This document shows, one piece after another, positions 1-7,832 of a stretch of DNA of 7,832 bases. Below the pieces are notes generated by a model. That model ran no database searches. It was not told the origin of the DNA and was given only the letters and a program-made list of their open reading frames with translations. The stretch spans positions 1 to 7,832 of the IMG/VR virus record IMGVR_UViG_2534682222_000010; one strand, written 5' to 3'. This DNA is from a virus (Duplodnaviria; Heunggongvirae; Uroviricota; Caudoviricetes). Both the position numbers and the translations under genes were made by a program. Positions within the stretch are counted from its first letter, which is position 1. The number at the start of each line of letters is the position of its first letter.

Positions 1-484
1 GGTATGTGAGAATGTCAGCAATAGTATTTTTACCGATAATGTCACGTCCAACAGAAGTTAAATCAGTCTGCGCAGCTGTATCAGTTCCAGTGAAATACGG
101 TAATTTATTTGCTGCGCCCACTAACGCGGCTAACGCCGTCAATGTAGGATTCAGCGGCTGGAAGTTCCCAAGGATGTAGGACAGCGTTCCGGCCGTCATC
201 ATGTTTGCCGCAATGTCATTTGCTGACCACGCTCGTGGGACAGTTCCTTCCTGCCCACGCTGAATAGTAAAGACATCACCAGCCCGGGCAGTAACATGAA
301 CAATCTCCGTAAGAGAACCGGTTGTAGCATCAATCAGCGTCAGCTTAAAGAAACTTGTGCCTGATACCGGAGAAGGAAATAGTGCACCAGTTCCGGTATT
401 TAGTGTCAACGATGTTGCTGAGGCGCTAATGCCAGCCGCCAGAACGCTTTGAGCATTGTTAGCAGCTAAAAGTTGAAGTGCCAT
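1..484 (-). CDS. Phage tail fibre protein, N-terminal 161 codons (gene continues beyond window start)
   Basis: Minus-strand ATG at 484..482, preceded by GGAGGA (493..488) with a 3-nt spacer. Hand translation MALQLLAANNAQSVLAAGISASATSLTLNTGTGALFPSPVSGTSFFKLTLIDATTGSLTEIVHVTARAGDVFTIQRGQEGTVPRAWSANDIAANMMTAGTLSYILGNFQPLNPTLTALAALVGAANKLPYFTGTDTAAQTDLTSVGRDIIGKNTIADILTY is open to position 1. The stretch TLTALAAL..NKLPYF..VGRDI..KN..AD is a motif I recall from enterobacterial prophage side tail fibre proteins. Absent from the ORF track because it is truncated by the window edge. Confidence 0.75.
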   Translation of the reverse strand, partial: MALQLLAANNAQSVLAAGISASATSLTLNTGTGALFPSPVSGTSFFKLTLIDATTGSLTEIVHVTARAGDVFTIQRGQEGTVPRAWSANDIAANMMTAGTLSYILGNFQPLNPTLTALAALVGAANKLPYFTGTDTAAQTDLTSVGRDIIGKNTIADILTY

Positions 485-505
485 TTATCCTCCGGGATTC
501 GGGCA

Positions 506-534
506 ATAAAAAACCCGCCGAAGCGGGTTTGGTT
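506..534 (-). terminator. Intrinsic terminator downstream of ant (possibly bidirectional)
   Basis: Perfect 6-bp stem ACCCGC (513..518) / GCGGGT (523..528) with a CGAA loop. On the minus strand the hairpin is followed by TTTTTTAT; on the plus strand only by TTGGTT, so it is stronger for the minus strand. Confidence 0.6.
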
Positions 535-542
535 AACGATTT

Positions 543-1517
543 TTAGTTAATTACGAATTCTGCTTTAGCGCCGCGGAAGGAGATTGTTTTGTTTCCTGCC
601 CGCCGGCAAGCATCAGCAATTGCTTTCATGCCATATTCAATATTTGCCAGATGACTTCTCATTGCTACGATTTCAGCCTTAGGCGCTGATACGTCAAACC
701 CTGCCGCCTCAAGAATACTGATCAAGCGAATGGCGGACGATGTTGAATTGTCGCCACAGAGCATAGGCATAGTGACGTCCAGGGCAGGTGCACACATTGA
801 CTTTCCGAATGACAGGTTGCCACTGCGAACCACCGGATTGTTGTCAATCCACCACTGGAGAGGAAGGTTTACGTCAAACTTCGGTGTAGGGAGCGCCTCT
901 TGCTTTCCAAGAAACTCGCCTTCAATCGGTACGCGCGCCGCAATAGATAGCGCTTCGGTAAACTGGTCGTCGCTGATTTCTTTGTAGCTGCAACCAAAGT
1001 GGGATTTCAGTGATGACCACATAGTGATCATTGCCTTGGCCTGACAATCTTTCGGCAGTGCTTTACCACGGGTCATTACCAGTTGTTTGATCGCCTCCTG
1101 CTGCTCGGGAGTGATTTTACCTGGTAATGCCTTTTTCGCCTTGCGTGGGTTTTTGACCTCGCCTTTAGTCCAGTATTCGTAAAGCACATCGTCGCACTCC
1201 TCCTGATAGCGAATGACGTTATCGCGAATTCCTGGCCGTACTTTGTTAGGGCTGATGGTTTGGAGCCAGCCATTCAGTTTGCGTAACGCAAGGCAAAGCA
1301 TGGTTTGTTTACCCCCTTTCGTAGGGATCATGATTTCCATGACCCCTTTAGCAAACCGTGATTTCAGCTTATCGACCTGACCTTGATAGGTTAATCCCAT
1401 GCCATCAATAATTGGGCGCATTGGGGTATAAGCCTCACCGTTGTGCTCTACCACGAAAAGAGAATTTCCATAGAAAGGCACGTTGATTGTACGATCTGCA
1501 ATTGCTAAACTATTCAT
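543..1517 (-). CDS. ant: Phage antirepressor (Ant-like), 324 aa
   Basis: Part of track ORF 543..1607, but I place the start at ATG 1517..1515 (MNSLAIADRTINVPF...), which has AAGGA 7 nt upstream. The track start at 1607 lies inside the arc coding sequence in another frame and has no spacer after its purine run. The N-terminal half resembles the AntA/Rha-type antirepressor domain from memory. Location immediately downstream of an Arc homologue and divergent from an Mnt-like gene matches P22 immI. Confidence 0.75.
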   Translation of the reverse strand: MNSLAIADRTINVPFYGNSLFVVEHNGEAYTPMRPIIDGMGLTYQGQVDKLKSRFAKGVMEIMIPTKGGKQTMLCLALRKLNGWLQTISPNKVRPGIRDNVIRYQEECDDVLYEYWTKGEVKNPRKAKKALPGKITPEQQEAIKQLVMTRGKALPKDCQAKAMITMWSSLKSHFGCSYKEISDDQFTEALSIAARVPIEGEFLGKQEALPTPKFDVNLPLQWWIDNNPVVRSGNLSFGKSMCAPALDVTMPMLCGDNSTSSAIRLISILEAAGFDVSAPKAEIVAMRSHLANIEYGMKAIADACRRAGNKTISFRGAKAEFVIN

Positions 1518-1589
1518 TGTTAGTTCCTTGGTAGTTACTGACAAATTTGAAGCCCTGACTGTTGCTGCAGTTGGGGCTTCGTCGTTTCT
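1518..1589 (+). ncRNA. Candidate sar-like antisense RNA covering the ant ribosome-binding site
   Basis: Plus-strand candidate promoter inside the 5' end of ant: -35 TTGATT (1483..1488), 17-bp spacer, TG-extended -10 TGcTAAACT (1503..1511), predicted start near 1518. About 70 nt downstream is a hairpin plus U-rich tail (see terminator 1549..1589). The transcript would be complementary to the ant SD (1525..1529) and the arc-ant spacer. Inferred by analogy with P22 sar; not demonstrated. Confidence 0.3.
1549..1589 (+). terminator. Candidate intrinsic terminator for the antisense transcript
   Basis: Stem GAAGCCC (1549..1555) / GGGCTTC (1574..1580), with an inner ACTG/CAGT pairing (1558..1561 / 1568..1571), followed on the plus strand by GTCGTTTCT. 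On the minus strand it is followed by AAATTTG, so it is not a terminator in the mRNA direction. Confidence 0.35.
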
Positions 1590-1749
1590 ATGCCTTAATA
1601 AATCCATCTTCTTTCAAGCTCCTTTCTATACGTTTAATCACCTCACTGTTTACCGAGCGCCCCTCTTCTTTTGCTGCTTTCTTCAGGATTTCCTTCAGTG
1701 CATCAGGGAACCGAATGCCTGTTGGAGGGATGTTTCTTGCGTTGTGCAT
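1588..1749 (-). CDS. arc: Arc-like ribbon-helix-helix repressor, 53 aa (not in ORF track)
   Basis: Minus-strand ATG at 1749..1747 with AGGAGA (1760..1755) 5 nt upstream; TAG stop at 1590..1588. Hand translation MHNARNIPPTGIRFPDALKEILKKAAKEEGRSVNSEVIKRIERSLKEDGFIKA. Same length as P22 Arc and, from my memory of that sequence, shares the EEGRSVNSE core and C-terminal KEDG.I.A pattern. Sits directly upstream of ant as in P22. Confidence 0.85.
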   Translation of the reverse strand: MHNARNIPPTGIRFPDALKEILKKAAKEEGRSVNSEVIKRIERSLKEDGFIKA

Positions 1750-1771
1750 ATCATTCTCCTACTCAAAAAAA

Positions 1772-1784
1772 CTACATTATGTAG
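1772..1784. promoter_or_regulatory. Operator candidate 1: perfect 13-bp palindrome CTACAT-T-ATGTAG
   Basis: 6-bp arms around one central base. Embedded in a 17-bp unit ACTACATTATGTAGATT (1771..1787) that recurs exactly at 1828..1844. Lies just downstream of the candidate -10 of the arc-ant promoter, at the predicted transcript start. Confidence 0.6.
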
Positions 1785-1788
1785 ATTT

Positions 1789-1837
1789 ATAATTACAGCA
1801 TGTGTCTATTGCGTCAAGCACTTTTCGACTACATTAT
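1789..1837. promoter_or_regulatory. Candidate divergent, overlapping promoters (Pant-like on minus strand, Pmnt-like on plus strand)
   Basis: Minus strand: -35 TTGACG (1817..1812), 17-bp spacer, -10 AATTAT (1794..1789). Plus strand: -35 TTGCGT (1809..1814), 17-bp spacer, -10 CATTAT (1832..1837). The two -35 hexamers overlap on opposite strands. A perfect plus-strand TATAAT also sits at 1788..1793 but has no good -35. Hexamer assignments are by eye and uncertain. Confidence 0.3.
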
Positions 1838-1841
1838 GTAG
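1829..1841. promoter_or_regulatory. Operator candidate 2: identical 13-bp palindrome CTACAT-T-ATGTAG
   Basis: Second exact copy, centre 57 bp from the first. Overlaps the candidate -10 (CATTAT, 1832..1837) of the plus-strand promoter for the Mnt-like gene and lies upstream of the -35 of the minus-strand promoter. Confidence 0.6.
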
Positions 1842-1864
1842 ATTGTTGATTCTGAGGATGTAGC

Positions 1865-2197
1865 ATGAAAGGTGCCAGCTTGATAGCCCCGCTCGGGGTG
1901 AGGATCCCTGAAGATTTAAAGGAAAAAATCCAAGCCCAAGCAAAGGAAAACGGACGGTCGACTAACGCTGAAATCGTTCAAATACTCGAAAGTTCGTTTT
2001 CAAAGCTTGATGAAGGTGAAAACAATCGTTCGAATGAAACTTCAGGCCATTATCAATACTTACTGAGTATGAAGGATGAAATTATTGAGGCACAAAAGGA
2101 AACTATATCTCACATGGAAAACACTATAAATAGCCTCAGCGAGCACATTAACATTCTGAAAGATCATGTTGAGTTTTTGAAGAATAAGTACAAATAG
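1865..2197 (+). CDS. Mnt-like ribbon-helix-helix repressor with C-terminal coiled-coil extension, 110 aa
   Basis: Track ORF 1865..2197. ATG at 1865 with GAGGA (1854..1858) 6 nt upstream. N-terminus LGVRIPEDLKEKIQAQAKENGRSTNAEIVQILESSF fits the Arc/Mnt/MetJ pattern (beta-strand, helix, NGRS turn, helix). The C-terminal ~50 residues look coiled-coil-like with heptad-spaced hydrophobics. Divergent from arc-ant, the position P22 mnt occupies. Confidence 0.7.
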   Translation: MKGASLIAPLGVRIPEDLKEKIQAQAKENGRSTNAEIVQILESSFSKLDEGENNRSNETSGHYQYLLSMKDEIIEAQKETISHMENTINSLSEHINILKDHVEFLKNKYK

Positions 2198-2202
2198 CAA
2201 AA

Positions 2203-2220
2203 AGCCCACTGAAGTGGGCT
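2203..2220. terminator. Bidirectional intrinsic terminator between convergent genes
   Basis: Stem AGCCCAC (2203..2209) / GTGGGCT (2214..2220) with a TGAA loop. Followed on the plus strand by TTGCGATTT and on the minus strand by TTTTTGC. Lies between the stop of the Mnt-like gene (2197) and the stop of the minus-strand exported-protein gene (2231). Confidence 0.6.
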
Positions 2221-2230
2221 TTGCGATTTA

Positions 2231-2686
2231 CTACCATTGTTTTTTTAAATCGTCTTCTGTCATTTTTAATCTAAAAATATCTTTATATTTTTTTATGTAA
2301 ACTTCAGGGGATGCCCTGCACTTCATTTGAAAGTTTTTATCAAAATACTCCGTATTTCTTTTTATTCCTTCAACGGCGTCATTTTTTATCAACTCTTTAA
2401 CAATCATTCTGTATTCATCATGTGGGATAAGTAATATGTCACCAATCATATGGTCTCCTGAATACTGACCACTTACAGCATCATTTGCTGCATTGATGAT
2501 AAGCAAGGATGATGCAAAGCACATATTGTAAATATTTAGATCCGTTGGTTTCAACCCTGATTTTTTAATTTCATTTAACATCATTGAGTATTCTTCTTGA
2601 TCATTGGTTGGTAATGGAGCCGCCAACCCAACATGAACAGTTGAGAAAAAATACAAAAAACATGTTATTCCTATTTTTTTTATCAT
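2231..2686 (-). CDS. Hypothetical small exported protein with N-terminal signal peptide, AT-rich moron
   Basis: Track ORF 2231..2692, but the codon at 2692..2690 is GTG; the first ATG is 2686..2684, giving MIKKIGITCFLYFFSTVHVGLA/APLPTNDQ... (151 aa). N-terminus has a basic start, hydrophobic core and small residues at -3/-1, consistent with a signal peptidase I site; no lipobox. Two Cys in the mature part. By inspection the gene is much more AT-rich than the flanking baseplate genes. I recognise no family. Confidence 0.55.
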   Translation of the reverse strand: MIKKIGITCFLYFFSTVHVGLAAPLPTNDQEEYSMMLNEIKKSGLKPTDLNIYNMCFASSLLIINAANDAVSGQYSGDHMIGDILLIPHDEYRMIVKELIKNDAVEGIKRNTEYFDKNFQMKCRASPEVYIKKYKDIFRLKMTEDDLKKQW

Positions 2687-2733
2687 GCCCACTAACCCAG
2701 GTTATAAATGACTCGGAAGATAAGCATAACAAT

Positions 2734-3438
2734 TCAACCAATGATAGTCACGCTAACGGGTTGATAAAATGGCATGTGTAGCAGGCCGCTGTCAAACGCC
2801 TGCTTGAACAACGAAGCATATTCGTAGTTCGTGCTTTTTATCAGCAGGATTTTCTTCTGGTTGAACACCTGTGAATTGTAGGAAAATTTGTTGAACATGG
2901 AGGCATCAGTGAGTTTCCTGTACCCTTTGATGATCGATATGCTCGCCCCAGAATCAGAAAACAGAACCGAAATGCTCCACCTCTGATCGTTAACGACGTC
3001 TACGCCATCAACCCCTGTAAGAAACCTCATTATCCGGCGCTTTAACCATGGAATGGTGAAGTAATACCCGTCACCTTTATAGAAATTCCACGTCATGATT
3101 CGCTTAAACAGATCGTCTGAAACGACAACCTGCTCTGACTGATTAACCACCTTTCGCCCATTGAATGGCAACTGGTTGAACAGAACGGCGTTGTACGGGC
3201 CGAAAACGGATTGCTTTCCACTGACCAGCACCGGCGGCTTAACGCCATAAATCCCGCGGGCAATCCATTTTAACTGGTCACCAGCATTATACCCACCGAC
3301 AAAGATCGGAAGGTTGGCATTAATCATCCATGAATAAATTTCCTGAGCCATGGTATTATACGCAGTGACGAAGGCCTGTAGATCATCGTCGTCGTTATAC
3401 TGCGTATACAGATATGATTTAATTATATCTTCCAGCAT
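2734..3438 (-). CDS. Phage tail/baseplate protein, DUF2612 / gpI-like position (234 aa)
   Basis: Track ORF 2734..3456 starts on TTG; the first ATG is 3438..3436, one nucleotide after the TAA stop of the upstream gene (3442..3440). Lies directly after the baseplate-J-like gene, as in Mu-type and P2-type baseplate modules. Family call is from memory of DUF2612-type tail proteins. Confidence 0.55.
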   Translation of the reverse strand: MLEDIIKSYLYTQYNDDDDLQAFVTAYNTMAQEIYSWMINANLPIFVGGYNAGDQLKWIARGIYGVKPPVLVSGKQSVFGPYNAVLFNQLPFNGRKVVNQSEQVVVSDDLFKRIMTWNFYKGDGYYFTIPWLKRRIMRFLTGVDGVDVVNDQRWSISVLFSDSGASISIIKGYRKLTDASMFNKFSYNSQVFNQKKILLIKSTNYEYASLFKQAFDSGLLHMPFYQPVSVTIIG

Positions 3439-3439
3439 G

Positions 3440-4858
3440 TTATATCCCGTCGACAATTACCCCATTTGAGGCCATGTACCAGTAACTATATGGGTCACCG
3501 CTGATTATATTCGTACCGGCGTCAACGCCTGTGATAACGCCGTTCACAGTCACAATAACATTCAGGGTCGAGATCAGGCTCATATCGAGCGTGCTGTTAA
3601 TCGCCTGAAGAAAGACATCTTTGACGTTATTTATATTCATCGGCTTTCCTGCGAATATCCCGTTTACATAATTGATTACCGGTTGCGTCACCAGAGAGGC
3701 TATTGTCGCGTCTGTCAGGTAGTTCGCGCTTTCGGTTGCCCACTGAAACTTGATAGTCACCAGTTGCTGAAATGGTATAACAAACGGTATCAGGTAGTTA
3801 TCTGGCCAGTCGTTGACCGTAACCACATTATTCCTCAGGTTCGGCGTAACTATTCCACCACCAGTCCATGCGCCTGACGAGGTGGTATTGATGCCTATTG
3901 AGAAAGTGTGTGGACTTAACACGGTTATAGTGAGAGGGACGTTATTAATCCCGCTCATGCCGGTAACACCTGCGATATTAATTACCTGGCCAGAGCTGAA
4001 TCCGTGCGTGATGTCGGTCGTTACTACTCCTGGGTTCGCATTGGTGATCCCGGTGACGTTCAGGTCAGTCCCTTTTAGCCTGCTGATGTCGCCGGCTGAC
4101 TTATAAATGGCCCCGGCCATCTCATAGATATCGCCGCCGCCACACATAACAATCCAGGCATTACCGCTCTGAACAACGGAAACCAGACGAGCCTGGACAT
4201 TACTCAGGTCTGTCAATTTCTGGCGGATAAAGCCTGGATATCCCTGAACAGTCGACATCTGAGCTTCCCAGACGCGCTCGCGAAATTCGAAGTTAGTTTC
4301 AGGCGCACCACCTGGGGTGCCAGCAACCGGGTTGGTGCAGGTCAGAGTAATGCCAGACGGCAGGCTGGTCAGTATCTGATTAACCGATCCTACCGGTACA
4401 GCCCACGAACCAGTGTTTGTTGCAATGGCTGTTACCATCGAACTGACACCGGAAGACAGCACCACTGTCGCATCGGCGATCTGGTAGGTATACGTGCCAT
4501 CGCTGACCAGAAACCCCTGTGACACTACGAAGCCGACCGGGCCCTCAAACACGACAGGTACAGTTGTCGCCCCCTGAGTTTTTTGTTCGCTGATACCTGA
4601 CTGCTGGGCCAGAAGGTTCAGCATGTACATATTGGCTTTCAGCGGGCCTACGGAGTTGATGAGGTCGACACGAATCTGATCGGCAATGAGTAGCGCGCCA
4701 ACATCGGTACCGACGATATCCTCGATAAGTGATCCGGGGAGGTCCGTAGTGATGCCTGGTGATAATTCTGTGGCTCTTGAAACTAAGTCGGCGCGCAGCT
4801 CTTCGGATGTTTTCGGCACTGGCCCGGCTGCGTCATAGCTAACGGACAAATCACTCAT
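3440..4858 (-). CDS. Baseplate J-like protein (472 aa)
   Basis: Track ORF with ATG at 4858..4856 overlapping the upstream stop as ATGA. Size and position (after a ~110-aa gene, before the gpI-like gene and tail fibre) fit baseplate wedge protein J of Mu (gp47) or P2 (gpJ). Assigned by overall resemblance and synteny; unverified. Confidence 0.65.
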   Translation of the reverse strand: MSDLSVSYDAAGPVPKTSEELRADLVSRATELSPGITTDLPGSLIEDIVGTDVGALLIADQIRVDLINSVGPLKANMYMLNLLAQQSGISEQKTQGATTVPVVFEGPVGFVVSQGFLVSDGTYTYQIADATVVLSSGVSSMVTAIATNTGSWAVPVGSVNQILTSLPSGITLTCTNPVAGTPGGAPETNFEFRERVWEAQMSTVQGYPGFIRQKLTDLSNVQARLVSVVQSGNAWIVMCGGGDIYEMAGAIYKSAGDISRLKGTDLNVTGITNANPGVVTTDITHGFSSGQVINIAGVTGMSGINNVPLTITVLSPHTFSIGINTTSSGAWTGGGIVTPNLRNNVVTVNDWPDNYLIPFVIPFQQLVTIKFQWATESANYLTDATIASLVTQPVINYVNGIFAGKPMNINNVKDVFLQAINSTLDMSLISTLNVIVTVNGVITGVDAGTNIISGDPYSYWYMASNGVIVDGI

Positions 4859-5187
4859 ACGTTCACCGTTGTGATAATTTTAGAACCGGCGTTCGTAATC
4901 GCCGAAATGTTGTATACAGGCGGATCATCACTCACAATGGCGATCTGCAGCGATGAAAAATACGGACTAAATTGCCGCTGAAGCCTGTCGACATAGTAGG
5001 TAGGCAGCACCTGCTGAATAACAGAGCTCTGGGACGGTATGCCGTTGTTTGCAAAAAATGGTGACTCCTGCGGAGCCAGCTTGAGGTTCTGGATCAGCGT
5101 CGTCAGATAAATAGAATCATTGAAGCCGTTTTCATCCGGCACCACCAGCACCCACTTGCCATTTGCATCTCTTCCGTAGGTTCTCAT
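4855..5187 (-). CDS. Small baseplate protein in the gp25/gpW-equivalent position (110 aa)
   Basis: Track ORF; ATG at 5187..5185 overlaps the upstream stop (ATGA) and its own stop overlaps the next start. I do not see a clear gp25 signature in the sequence, so the call is positional only. Confidence 0.4.
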   Translation of the reverse strand: MRTYGRDANGKWVLVVPDENGFNDSIYLTTLIQNLKLAPQESPFFANNGIPSQSSVIQQVLPTYYVDRLQRQFSPYFSSLQIAIVSDDPPVYNISAITNAGSKIITTVNV

Positions 5188-5900
5188 TGCGTGATATTCC
5201 CGTTGAAAGTGGTGGTCGGGGCGCCAGTGTTTGAACCGCCATTCCCGTTTGTATGCTGATGGTTATTCAACCATGCGACCAGAGCTGCCCAGCCGGTATG
5301 CATAATCTCCGGGCTGGTGCTGGCGGTTGAATCCTGTAACTTCCCGCTCTGTCCTGTGATGCTCCACATTCCCTGGGTAAGGGTTAGAACGGTGCTACCG
5401 ACAGTGACCTTAAACAAATCGACGGCCGCAATCGTCACGCTGTCCGGAGTTAACAGAAACGTCGTGTTGCTTCCCTGGTCCCTGATAGTTACGCCCTCAG
5501 GTCCGTAGATAGTGACAACATTCCCGTCTACGGCTTCCCATTCAGTGTTGCTGATCGGCAGGTATACCAGGGCGCTAAGGTTGGCTGGAGGGGTCAGGTC
5601 GGCGATACCACCGCCCTGCCCGCTGACGCCGCCGAGATAGGTGTCGGCAGGAATAACAATGCCTTTATCACCCGGCTGCATCGGATAGCGGATGTACTGT
5701 GGACCAAAAAGCGGAATGGTGACATTCGGGAAAACATATGGGGTGTCGTGCAACTCGAAGGCCACGGTGACCATATTGCCATTCTGCTCAACAATGCTGG
5801 CGGGCAGGATTTTCCCGGCAGCCTGGAACGCCTCATTAAATTTCTGCTCCGCGAATCGGTTCATGTTCCGGCCGAAATTAAGCTTCTGGTCAACACTCAT
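5184..5900 (-). CDS. Baseplate central spike-like protein (gpV/gp45/Gp138-like), 238 aa
   Basis: Track ORF; ATG at 5900..5898 overlaps the upstream stop (ATGA). Position between the hub-like and small wedge-like genes; Gly/Thr/Asn-rich C-terminus typical of spike tips. Family call from memory and synteny. Confidence 0.45.
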   Translation of the reverse strand: MSVDQKLNFGRNMNRFAEQKFNEAFQAAGKILPASIVEQNGNMVTVAFELHDTPYVFPNVTIPLFGPQYIRYPMQPGDKGIVIPADTYLGGVSGQGGGIADLTPPANLSALVYLPISNTEWEAVDGNVVTIYGPEGVTIRDQGSNTTFLLTPDSVTIAAVDLFKVTVGSTVLTLTQGMWSITGQSGKLQDSTASTSPEIMHTGWAALVAWLNNHQHTNGNGGSNTGAPTTTFNGNITQ

Positions 5901-6919
5901 TTTGTCTTAACCGCCTCCGCCGGGTATGCCTCAATCACCGTGATCCACGCCTCTGCTGTCGGCTGCCTGCTGTTACCCAGCAACCTCACCGACTGAACGA
6001 CAAATTCGCCGTTAAACGCTGAGTCATCGCGAAACTGCGAGTAAGAGGATGCCTGAATCATCGGCCTGGCCTTTTCCGGCATCAGGATGTGATCGCCGGT
6101 CTGAAGGTCAGCGCGCATAACGCAGATGACGCTGACGACACCAAAGCTGATCCACGTTGGCTGACCTATCAGGTCATTGAAATTTATCTGGACAGGGTTT
6201 TTGCTCCTTCCCGTCGCGCTGGTTTTTGAACCCTGATCCGGGTGGTTGGCGTAGTCGTTATCCCACACCCGGATTTCGTTGCCATTGACCACGGCAATTT
6301 CCACCCCCGTATAGCCGGGGTCTTTGATGCGGGATAGCGAAAACGCCCTCAGGTTTTTTGCCAGCTCAGTGAGGGAGCCGCAAAACATGGGGCGATCGTA
6401 ATTCAGCGTCAGCCTGTCGCTGATGCTTATGTTCGGTGTAAATCCCCCCATCGTCATGACACATTGTGTCAGTGCTACGGAGAGTTTCTGCCCCATAGAC
6501 CATGGCATTGTCAGCTGGAGAGGAACCATTTGCCCGCGGGTTGTGGTGTTAACTGGACCAGAAACAATGATAAAATCAAGACGCATTTCTGTTCCTTGCC
6601 AGTTTCCGAATACCTGAAACACATAACCCTCAATAGCTAACTTTTTATTCCCCACGCCCGCCAGTGGGAGCCCTTTTGACATGCCAACAAAGATCTGAAT
6701 TTTTTTGCCATAGAGGTTCTGCCTTGCCTGCTGCATTTCTCTCGGCCCAATCCCCCATATTGTTAAATGGGTTTCACCCTGCGGGGTAGACTCTCCGAAC
6801 CTGAGAATGTCAAATTCAACCATCAAGGCGCCAGGGTTGTACGCTCCATTTTTATGACTGGAGTAGTGCTGGATGACTTTATCATTGCTATCAAGAATGT
6901 TTATCTCGTAATAACGCAT
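5897..6919 (-). CDS. Baseplate hub-like protein (Mu gp44/P-like position), 340 aa
   Basis: Track ORF; ATG at 6919..6917 shares one nucleotide with the upstream TGA (TGATG). Size and position immediately upstream of the spike-like gene fit a baseplate hub. Positional inference. Confidence 0.4.
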   Translation of the reverse strand: MRYYEINILDSNDKVIQHYSSHKNGAYNPGALMVEFDILRFGESTPQGETHLTIWGIGPREMQQARQNLYGKKIQIFVGMSKGLPLAGVGNKKLAIEGYVFQVFGNWQGTEMRLDFIIVSGPVNTTTRGQMVPLQLTMPWSMGQKLSVALTQCVMTMGGFTPNISISDRLTLNYDRPMFCGSLTELAKNLRAFSLSRIKDPGYTGVEIAVVNGNEIRVWDNDYANHPDQGSKTSATGRSKNPVQINFNDLIGQPTWISFGVVSVICVMRADLQTGDHILMPEKARPMIQASSYSQFRDDSAFNGEFVVQSVRLLGNSRQPTAEAWITVIEAYPAEAVKTK

Positions 6920-7194
6920 CAGCTTTTTACCTCAATCTGCCCGTTCTTTTCGCGCCAGATCATGGTCGTCGATGAGAAAACTCCACTTAAAAGGTTTATC
7001 CCCCCAGCAGATGTTGAACCTACGACGGCGGTATTCATGACCGTGTTGTCAGAACTATCAGTGATCAGCAGGTACCAACGCTGTGCGGCGATGTTCCACT
7101 TCATCTGGCAGGTATAAACGTTCCCGTCAAGAATTGGTGAGAACGTCACGCTACGCTGCTCTCTTCCAGTAAATGGATAATTGACGGTACTCAT
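6919..7194 (-). CDS. Hypothetical phage structural-module protein (91 aa)
   Basis: Track ORF; ATG at 7194..7192 overlaps the upstream stop (ATGA) and its stop overlaps the next start, so it is almost certainly translated as part of the operon. No family recognised. Confidence 0.45.
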   Translation of the reverse strand: MSTVNYPFTGREQRSVTFSPILDGNVYTCQMKWNIAAQRWYLLITDSSDNTVMNTAVVGSTSAGGINLLSGVFSSTTMIWREKNGQIEVKS

Positions 7195-7832
7195 ATCCCG
7201 AACGCCCCCTGGAGTTTACCTATCAGTCCAATTACCCCCTCCGCACTACTTGCTACTGCTCCACCTAGGGCGGTATTGCCAAGAGCTGATGCCGTATTTG
7301 TCCATGATGGTGCCTTATTAGGATCCCCGGCATCTATTCTCTTGAGGAAGTTGGTAACTGCTCTGTCAGCATCATTGGTGGTAATAAGTGGCTGCTCGAA
7401 ATCCCAGAGCCAGGACCGCTGAGGAAGCGGATCATTACCGGATGAGTTGTCCTTAACCGTTTTCAGGATGCAGTTGTTGTAGATAATTGACGGCGTGGCC
7501 ACGATGTAAGTCCCGCCCAGGTTGGCATGCGCCTGAAGCACCGCCTGCAGCGCGCTCAGTGTTACCAGTTTGGTCATAGCGCCAGTATTCTCGTTCACTG
7601 GCGCATCCATCATCAGGCTGACCCTCAGCGGCTGAGCCAGAAGCGCGTTGGCCGCGACGGTCTGGTTAGCGAATGGGTATTTAGCGATGTCATAGTCGAC
7701 CATCGTTGCGCCCTGAACAGGACGCCAGTGACAGAAATATTTATCCAGATCGGTAAGGTTGATTGCTCCTCCGATCAGCCCGGTTACAAAGCTGGCGCTC
7801 TGGGTTAGTGCCACTATGGGCAGCATGCCGCC
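7191..7832 (-). CDS. Phage tail/baseplate-associated protein, partial (upstream part probably outside window)
   Basis: Track ORF 7191..7826 (211 aa from the first ATG), but the frame stays open through the last two codons to the window end at 7832, so the true start may lie beyond the window. Gly/Ala-rich C-terminus. Positionally equivalent to a DNA-circulation or tape-measure-adjacent protein; unverified. Confidence 0.45.
   Translation of the reverse strand, partial: GGMLPIVALTQSASFVTGLIGGAINLTDLDKYFCHWRPVQGATMVDYDIAKYPFANQTVAANALLAQPLRVSLMMDAPVNENTGAMTKLVTLSALQAVLQAHANLGGTYIVATPSIIYNNCILKTVKDNSSGNDPLPQRSWLWDFEQPLITTNDADRAVTNFLKRIDAGDPNKAPSWTNTASALGNTALGGAVASSAEGVIGLIGKLQGAFGI

Follow-up and report, generated by a model that had tools for sequence, protein, structure and literature searches.

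A predicted P22-type immI antirepressor cassette in the late operon of a contractile-tail prophage

The stretch of DNA analyzed here (hereafter the window) comprises 7,832 nucleotides (nt), positions 1 to 7,832 of the IMG/VR record IMGVR_UViG_2534682222_000010, a virus of the class Caudoviricetes, and carries a short cassette resembling the immI antirepressor region of phage P22. The window is organized as one long minus-strand late operon, with genes for proteins of 211, 91, 340, 238, 110, 472, and 240 amino acids (aa), in that order, between 7826 and 2734. The 240-aa gene is followed by open reading frames (ORFs) of 153 aa (minus strand), 110 aa (plus strand), and 53 aa (minus strand), a large minus-strand ORF ending at 543, and a minus-strand gene starting at 484. 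The cassette, as delimited from the ORFs and a terminator scan, consists of the following features.

511-2222, both strands: immI-type cassette, from the terminator at 511-530 to the terminator at 2201-2222
511-530, minus strand: intrinsic terminator after ant, AAACCCGCTTCGGCGGGTTT followed by a T run, from the terminator scan
543-1517, minus strand: ant, encoding a 324-aa antirepressor, recognized by its P22_AR_N domain and by alignment to P22 Ant
1483-1511, plus strand: candidate promoter Psar, TTGATT-17-TAAACT, read from the sequence within the first ant codons
1517-1584, plus strand: predicted sar RNA, Rfam RF00262
1588-1749, minus strand: arc, encoding a 53-aa ribbon-helix-helix (RHH) repressor, first gene of the arc-ant operon, Pfam Arc PF03869
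1772-1784, no strand: putative operator O1, CTACATTATGTAG
1789-1817, minus strand: candidate promoter Pant, with -35 TTGACG (1817-1812), a 17-nt spacer, and a TG-extended -10 AATTAT (1794-1789)
1793-1805, no strand: weaker operator-like site O3, TTACAGCATGTGT, from a motif search
1829-1841, no strand: putative operator O2, CTACATTATGTAG
1865-2197, plus strand (against the late operon): gene for a 110-aa Mnt-like repressor, Pfam Arc PF03869, E 3e-12, above the cut-off
2201-2222, no strand: bidirectional terminator hairpin AAAGCCCACT/AGTGGGCTTT at the right edge of the cassette, common to mnt (plus strand) and the 153-aa ORF (minus strand)

A first-pass annotation had proposed a complete P22 immI-like module (mnt-like gene, operators, arc, and ant) at 543-2197, and ORFs of 110, 53, and 324 aa are indeed found at these positions. 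The functional unit is slightly wider, extending from terminator to terminator, and the parts listed at the time are all present along with one that had been missed, the antisense RNA sar. The proposal that gene order, orientation, and sizes follow P22 likewise held in a comparison with the annotated P22 genome (NC_002371), in which late genes are followed by an opposite-strand mnt, a promoter/operator region, arc, sar, ant, a terminator, and a receptor-binding tail gene, exactly as observed here. Lack of similarity to P22 Arc, Mnt, and Ant would have counted against the proposal, and all three proteins proved significantly similar to their P22 counterparts. The window therefore combines a repressor gene divergent from an arc-ant operon across a short control region with palindromic operators, a sar element over the ant ribosome-binding site in the arc-ant spacer, and a late-operon site upstream of a receptor-binding tail gene with terminators on both flanks. 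At the level of sequence, this confirms the cassette as a P22-type immI antirepressor switch with all parts present, one more member of an established class of mobile phage cassettes.

Both small proteins are RHH repressors of the Arc family. Arc matches PF03869 with an E-value of 2e-12 (47.2 bits, cut-off 20.4), aligns without gaps to P22 Arc across all 53 residues at 38% identity, and retrieves solved Arc chains in a sequence search of the PDB (E 6e-8). The 110-aa protein shares with P22 Mnt an N-terminal Arc-like RHH domain (residues ~9-50, 39% identical to residues 8-45 of P22 Mnt), and its PDB matches include 1mnt_A (E 1.3e-4) as well as Arc chains. A single-sequence AF2 model of this protein places helices at residues 16-28, 32-52, and 58-108, with a predicted local confidence (pLDDT) >90 in the 58-108 helix. 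No match to the Repressor_Mnt tetramerization domain (PF11423) was obtained for it at E <= 1, whereas P22 Mnt matches this family at E 1.6e-20. Hence, we describe the 110-aa protein as Mnt-like by its predicted architecture and position, and not as a demonstrated Mnt orthologue. In both proteins, as in those of Midgardsormr38 and Edno5, a P-x-G-x-R motif occupies the residues aligned with the DNA-contacting positions of P22 Arc, compared with Q/H-x-N-x-R in P22 and K-x-N-x-R in phage 2851, and this reading head is common to the two paralogues inside each cassette compared (the window, Midgardsormr38, Edno5, P22, and 2851). The N-terminal arms of the two proteins differ (MHNARNI vs MKGASLIA).

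The large ORF encodes an antirepressor composed of two halves of different affiliation. Residues 12-121 correspond to P22_AR_N (PF10547; E 6e-41, 139.7 bits vs a Pfam cut-off of 30.7), and the first 212 residues are 41% identical to residues 1-200 of P22 Ant. Closer relatives of residues 1-207 are found in Shiga toxin (Stx) phages, CUS-3, and S.Kent (73-78% identity), and the Ant of Klebsiella phage ST101-KPC2phi6.1 is 62% identical over its full length. Residues 208-324 (window 546-896) form a distinct C-terminal domain with its nearest relatives in Klebsiella phages. These 117 residues had no Pfam match, including to P22_AR_C (PF10548), in the same search that identifies P22_AR_C in the Ant proteins of P22 (E 7e-31) and 2851 (E 1e-29), and a PDB sequence search found no relative of Ant. 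When genome contigs were scanned with Ant (one genome per species), the top match came from Klebsiella grimontii (87%), in a different regulatory context. The start at 1517 is preceded by an AAGGAA ribosome-binding site, and its first codons pair one by one with those of P22 Ant (MNSIAI / MNSLAI). A mechanical 354-aa ORF starting at 1607 was considered as an alternative and rejected, as it overlaps arc and translates the sar hairpin, while both the P22 alignment and the ribosome-binding site favor 1517.

Opposite the start of ant, the plus strand of the arc-ant spacer contains a sar RNA, predicted from the nucleotide sequence alone (46.9 bits vs a gathering score of 43, E 2.5e-7), whose sequence is the complement of the ribosome-binding site and start codon of ant. 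It comprises a 5' hairpin, a terminator hairpin at 1548-1581 nearly identical to the one in P22, and a T-rich tail ending at the arc stop codon, with a computed two-hairpin fold of -32.7 kcal/mol (z = -6.35). The -10 of the candidate Psar aligns with the annotated P22 Psar -10, and a TAnAnT hexamer 3-5 nt from the complement of the ant ATG, which in P22 is this annotated -10, was read directly in 18 other cassettes. All 20 arc-ant spacers compared, those of P22, CUS-3, Midgardsormr38, and Edno5 among them, keep the same architecture, with compensatory changes in 6 of the 12 pairs of the GC-rich hairpin stem. Few related cassettes reach the Rfam gathering score, though the hairpin is visibly conserved, and the sar family thus appears to be broader than the current Rfam model. 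A sar-like element, made up of a -10 beside the ant ATG, a GC hairpin with covarying pairs, and a T tail, is also kept in 16 loci that carry Bro-N cargo instead of P22_AR_N, most of them below the gathering score.

Considered in isolation, an RHH pair next to a larger protein could also represent a toxin-antitoxin, plasmid-stability, or anti-phage defense module. RHH proteins are common as antitoxins, weaker Pfam matches of the small proteins include the FitA-like, HicB, and ParD-like RHH families, and one source names the 110-aa protein “plasmid stability protein”. We nevertheless consider this extremely unlikely, since Arc is the best Pfam family for both small proteins and is above its cut-off in each case, the large protein combines P22_AR_N with 41% identity to P22 Ant, sar is present, and the position and orientation of the genes are those of immI. 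A PADLOC search returned no match for any of the three proteins.

The arc and mnt-like genes are separated by 115 bp, within which a 17-nt exact direct repeat holds the perfect palindrome CTACATTATGTAG. This word yields four strand-matches vs 0.17 expected, a count reached in none of 200 shuffles. The promoter scan identified candidate Pant (9 of 12 matches plus TG) as the sole consensus promoter of the control region, and the three operator-like sites are arranged around it. O1 lies just 3' of the candidate Pant -10, over the expected start site and at the position of Omnt in P22, and a site at this relative position is kept in 23 diverged cassettes. O3 lies inside the Pant spacer, at the position of Oarc in P22, and its central-site equivalent in the other cassette subgroup is a full palindrome, CTACATCATGTAG. 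O2 is located 11 bp upstream of the Pant -35 and 24 bp before the mnt ATG, a position with no P22 counterpart, and its sequence, ACTACATTATG, is the best conserved of the three across cassettes. For the promoter of mnt itself, we found no convincing hexamers matching either a P22-style Pmnt fully overlapping Pant or a promoter symmetric to Pant, and the candidates left are weak: TTGCGT-17-CATTAT and a lone TATAAT at 1788-1793. O2 probably overlaps the former (TTGCGT at 1809-1814, a 17-nt spacer, and CATTAT at 1832-1837), which we infer to be Pmnt.

This arrangement extends well beyond the window. Across 23 IMG/VR loci with Mnt-like relatives at 43-100% identity, every locus encodes a divergent Arc, 53-54 aa long (or up to 65 aa if the mechanical ORF begins further upstream), together with P-x-G-x-R heads, yTACAT-N-ATGTAG sites at three conserved positions, and, as the Pant -35, a TTGAC that never varies. 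Between the three sites, the central bases vary in a systematic way across cassettes. The gene that follows arc is a mix of exchangeable parts, joining P22_AR_N or Bro-N heads to P22_AR_C or other tails, so that in these loci the predicted regulatory chassis is kept while different antirepressors are swapped in as its cargo.

The same parts may also operate under a different logic, in which the Arc-like and Mnt-like paralogues both read the single word yTACAT-N-ATGTAG at the three conserved positions (start site, spacer, and upstream of the -35), with no Arc- or Mnt-specific operator. In such a scheme, oligomeric state would decide between maintenance and shut-off, with the Mnt-like protein bridging sites through its long C-terminal coiled coil. 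This would account for the placement of O1 and O2 in identical 17-mers, for an O2 without equivalent in P22, for the presence of P, G, and R at the three DNA-contact positions of P22 Arc in both proteins of every subfamily cassette, and for the confidently predicted 50-residue C-terminal helix. On the other hand, the two proteins have different N-terminal arms, and in P22 these arms contribute to operator specificity, while the systematic central-base differences among the three sites could themselves encode discrimination. We regard this logic as a tenable possibility but not as the one to be favored. If true, the mnt-operator-arc-sar chassis would be a general-purpose controller for interchangeable antirepressor cargo, with P22_AR_N or Bro-N heads and P22_AR_C or other tails.

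We next consider the backbone in which the cassette is embedded. A megablast of the whole window against a phage collection gave no match, and the backbone family was found only by protein search. Proteins of the window match PHROG baseplate hub and wedge families, and the 472-aa protein is a Baseplate_J protein in Pfam, 66-75% identical to its counterparts in Klebsiella phage Chronis, the Yersinia vB_YenM_29.18 group, and Pantoea PdC23 (71% for vB_YenM_29.18). The Yersinia vB_YenM_29.18 phages have contractile tails by electron microscopy (EM; PMC9224151). Prophages in four complete E. coli genomes match the structural genes at 85-89% identity, and a 464-aa gene of a syntenic E. coli relative, outside the window, matches a PHROG tail sheath family (E 7e-45). 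With the sheath taken from this relative, the hub, wedge, and baseplate J proteins from the window, and relatives checked by EM, the label of a contractile-tail late operon is, on homology, correct. In one of the E. coli relatives, the remaining prophage is lambdoid, with an integrase, exo/bet/gam, a LexA-family CI, a Cro-like protein, CII, a DnaB-type helicase, Nin genes, a Q antiterminator, lysis genes, and a terminase. Lambdoid regulation of this type would plausibly offer Ant a CI-type target and the late transcript a Q-dependent passage through the terminators of the cassette.

Two further features adjoin the cassette in the window, and two more are the ORFs that take its place in relatives.

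2-484, minus strand: N-terminus of a tail-fiber gene, 161 codons, continuing beyond the window, with a GGAGGA ribosome-binding site before the ATG at 484
2231-2692, minus strand: 153-aa cargo ORF, 33% GC, with a signal-peptide-like N-terminus beginning MIKKIGITCFLYFFSTVHVGLAAP
L015 9169-9861 and L016 9184-9816, late strand: slot ORFs of the Chronis/Yersinia relatives, between the last baseplate gene and the fiber gene

The segment 484-2 downstream of ant is 86-97% identical to annotated E. coli tail-fiber genes, and in the sister loci L005-L014 the gene at this position contains Gp53-like_C or Collar domains. Directly 3' of the cassette, the tail-fiber gene is the positional analogue of P22 gene 9. 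In sister loci L007, L009, L013, and L014 (~5600-8600), 3' of the tail fiber and beyond the extent of the window, a Resolvase/invertase gene lies beside opposed fiber C-terminal and tail-fiber-assembly genes, a segment resembling the invertible host-range segments of the Mu G / P1 C type. On the other side, the 153-aa ORF adjoins mnt, at about the place that sieA and other cargo occupy in P22, and it had no match in Pfam, PHROG, or PADLOC. Within the backbone, the 472-aa baseplate J/wedge protein (3440-4858, minus strand) carries an inserted E1_FCCH (ubiquitin-activating-enzyme E1 FCCH) domain at residues 275-338 (Pfam E 1.3e-14), and RefSeq names its E. coli homologues after this domain.

Comparison with relatives lacking the cassette defines its boundaries. 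The prophage of E. coli KCJ3K291 is without exactly window positions 530-2232 and has 33 bp there instead, a clean 1.7-kb presence/absence with its right boundary at 2232/2233. It retains the pre-fiber terminator (511-530 in the window), as seen in the junction comparison, and, at the position of the 153-aa ORF, a diverged 154-aa homologue (71% DNA identity over 74% of the gene). In E. coli 88COLEC, the slot holds a different 355-bp filler with a 97-aa ORF, which we considered as a possible Mnt remnant and rejected, as it encodes a hydrophobic, membrane-like protein. The tail/baseplate modules of several lambdoid temperate myoviruses, namely Klebsiella phages vB_Kpn_Chronis and RothC/D, the Yersinia vB_YenM_29.18 group, and Pantoea PdC23 are syntenic with the window, and none of these phages carries an immI cassette; in Chronis and the Yersinia vB_YenM phages, the slot between a 234-aa baseplate gene and the fiber gene holds an unrelated late-strand ORF of 210-230 aa, for which Pfam, PHROG, and PADLOC returned no family. 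Because relatives hold 33 bp, a 355-bp filler, or a 210-230-aa ORF there, the site between the last baseplate gene and the fiber gene is, in the genomes compared, a slot for variable cargo. A parallel is found in P22-like phages, where the “ant moron” site precedes the tailspike gene (Villafane et al. 2008, PMC2629481). The 88COLEC prophage also has, outside the window and beside its large terminase, a 473-aa gene (L037 6046-7467) named “anti-CBASS protein Acb1 family protein” by PGAP; the gene sits where a portal would be expected and has a 539-aa neighbor named NUDIX domain protein, so that this naming is odd for the position.

The cassette is widely distributed. A 110-aa Mnt-like protein identical to that of the window is indexed in 248 blocks of an assembly collection under the source names E. 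coli, Enterobacter cloacae complex, and Citrobacter, with one flank 100% E. coli, and ten loci read at several chromosomal sites all have the same layout. In L005-L012, the block 897-2692 (ant N-half, sar, arc, operators, mnt, and the 153-aa ORF) is 99-100% identical while the adjoining baseplate genes are 70-95% identical, a contrast that is partly an ascertainment effect, as these loci were picked for an identical Mnt-like protein and the identity of linked DNA is thereby inflated. The ant C-half is 90-100% identical among loci, and identity breaks off sharply at two points, one where the two ant domains meet (~residue 207) and one in the 41 bp that separate the block from the 240-aa gene (2692/2734). 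Given the clean absence of 530-2232 in a relative and this near-identical block in diverged backbones, we interpret the cassette as a mobile “moron”. DNA-level matches to known phages are limited to 897-1590 (ant N-half and sar), at 72-75% identity to podovirus CUS-3 and Stx siphoviruses.

These data also bear on the wider claims of the first-pass annotation. It had placed ant in the transcription direction of the late genes with a tail-fiber gene next, amid contractile-tail baseplate genes, and both points agree with the fiber, sheath, and baseplate J matches described above. Its suggestion of modular exchange is borne out by the 1.7-kb presence/absence, the near-identical cassettes in diverged backbones, the DNA shared with CUS-3 and Stx siphoviruses, and an Arc 85% identical in a siphovirus. 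The further statement that this exchange connects unrelated tail types stands as far as the tails themselves are concerned, but does not extend to the regulatory circuits, as the contractile-tail backbone is itself lambdoid.

One interpretation of this distribution is that Ant serves mainly in prophage conflict or in the trans-induction of other resident lambdoid prophages, with the cassette spreading by that advantage. The near-identity of 897-2692 in backbones with 70-95% baseplate identity suggests recent horizontal spread, related phages manage without the cassette, and the ant C-half has itself been exchanged, with a break at ~residue 207. Yet the choice of loci contributes to the first of these patterns, and the interpretation is compatible with a P22-like switch, since P22 Ant acts on its own as well as on heterologous repressors. 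As the principal role of Ant, we rate it as rather unlikely.

Overall, we consider it likely that the cassette is a functional P22-like immI antirepressor switch (“ant moron”), self-contained in the late operon of a lambdoid Enterobacteriaceae prophage with a contractile tail. By analogy with P22, from which protein-to-site binding, the target of Ant, and the timing are drawn, it would operate as follows. In a lysogen, the Mnt-like protein, expressed from its own weak promoter against late transcription, would occupy the CTACAT-N-ATGTAG sites over the Pant start, in the spacer, and upstream of the -35, keeping arc-ant silent. In a newly infected cell without Mnt-like protein, Pant would fire and yield Arc and Ant, the latter binding and inactivating CI-type (LexA-family) repressors. 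As Arc builds up, Pant would be shut off, and sar, transcribed from Psar inside the 5' end of ant, would pair with the ant ribosome-binding site and block translation. During lytic growth, Q-antiterminated late transcription would pass both flanking terminators and reach the tail-fiber gene.

The state of the cassette is consistent with such a role. Degraded ant morons are often carried by P22-like phages (PMC2629481), and insertion sequence (IS) elements lie near some sister loci (L006), both of which might be expected if the cassette were a decaying, non-functional remnant. This is very improbable, however, as all ORFs are whole and preceded by ribosome-binding sites, the promoter, operators, sar, and terminators are intact, and the cassette is conserved at 99-100% in many genomes.

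Several observations nonetheless weigh against a straightforward transfer of the P22 scheme. The lambdoid early region was read in a cassette-less relative and not in a cassette-bearing genome. The consensus promoter scan of the control region gave no convincing mnt promoter. The two strong operators are identical and both RHH proteins share the P-x-G-x-R head, and the P22 division of labor between separate Oarc and Omnt is therefore not simply transferable. The C-terminus of the Mnt-like protein is not the P22 tetramerization domain, and the C-terminal 117 residues of Ant are unrelated to P22_AR_C, so that the target of Ant could differ from that in P22. The cassette itself passes nearly intact between diverged prophages of E. 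coli, Enterobacter, and Citrobacter; together with the conserved chassis, the shuffled cargo, and the breadth of the sar family, this could matter for understanding cross-induction between co-resident prophages in clinical Enterobacteriaceae.

Among known systems, the immI region of P22 shares with the window an Arc of 53 aa, an arc-ant spacer of ~70 nt containing sar, a Psar over the first ant codons, an Ant with P22_AR_N and central region, and the same late-operon site immediately upstream of the receptor-binding tail gene. The two differ in their virions (podovirus vs contractile-tail baseplate) and operators (distinct Oarc and Omnt vs CTACAT-N-ATGTAG two to three times), as well as in their proteins: P22 has Q/H-x-N-x-R heads, PF11423, and P22_AR_C, whereas the window has P-x-G-x-R heads, a longer Mnt-like helix, and another Ant C-terminus. 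The cassette of Edwardsiella phage Edno5 (Gofduovirus), a temperate myovirus by EM, was already described by its authors as an ImmI region (PMC6372524), and contractile-tailed phages are therefore already known to carry cassettes of this kind. Edno5 carries a Mnt / Arc / Ant cassette of the same P-x-G-x-R subfamily in its tail operon (Arc 68% and Mnt RHH domain 72% identical to those of the window). Its operator word is of the same type, and the sar-like hairpin that follows arc gives no Rfam sar match at the gathering score. Unlike in the window, this cassette lies between tape-measure and baseplate genes, and it carries a 201-aa Bro-N protein as cargo in place of a P22_AR_N protein.

Non-contractile tails are represented by two siphoviruses. 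In Erwinia phage Midgardsormr38, an Arc-family / Arc / Ant / Ant cassette lies among tail genes in the same divergent layout, with an Arc 85% and a Mnt-like protein 48% identical to those of the window, the same operator word twice, and two antirepressor genes (P22_AR_N and KilAC). In the Stx siphovirus 2851 (Pankowvirus), an arc-ant pair lies between minor-tail genes, again in the same divergent layout, and the Ant N-half is 74% identical; here, arc and ant overlap without a sar spacer, the heads are of the P22-type N-x-R, and Ant has P22_AR_C. We also identified in Enterobacteria phage 2851 (NC_049943) an unannotated Mnt-like ORF of 106 aa (L033 5973-6293, plus strand), with an RHH domain and a helical tail (Pfam Arc E 1.4e-20). 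Since it is divergent from the annotated Arc-like repressor and Ant, phage 2851 carries a complete mnt/arc/ant module that is only partly annotated. Taken together, these comparisons show that the P22 immI “ant moron” is not tied to podoviruses, but is a portable regulatory cassette that occurs in phage late operons across all three tail types.

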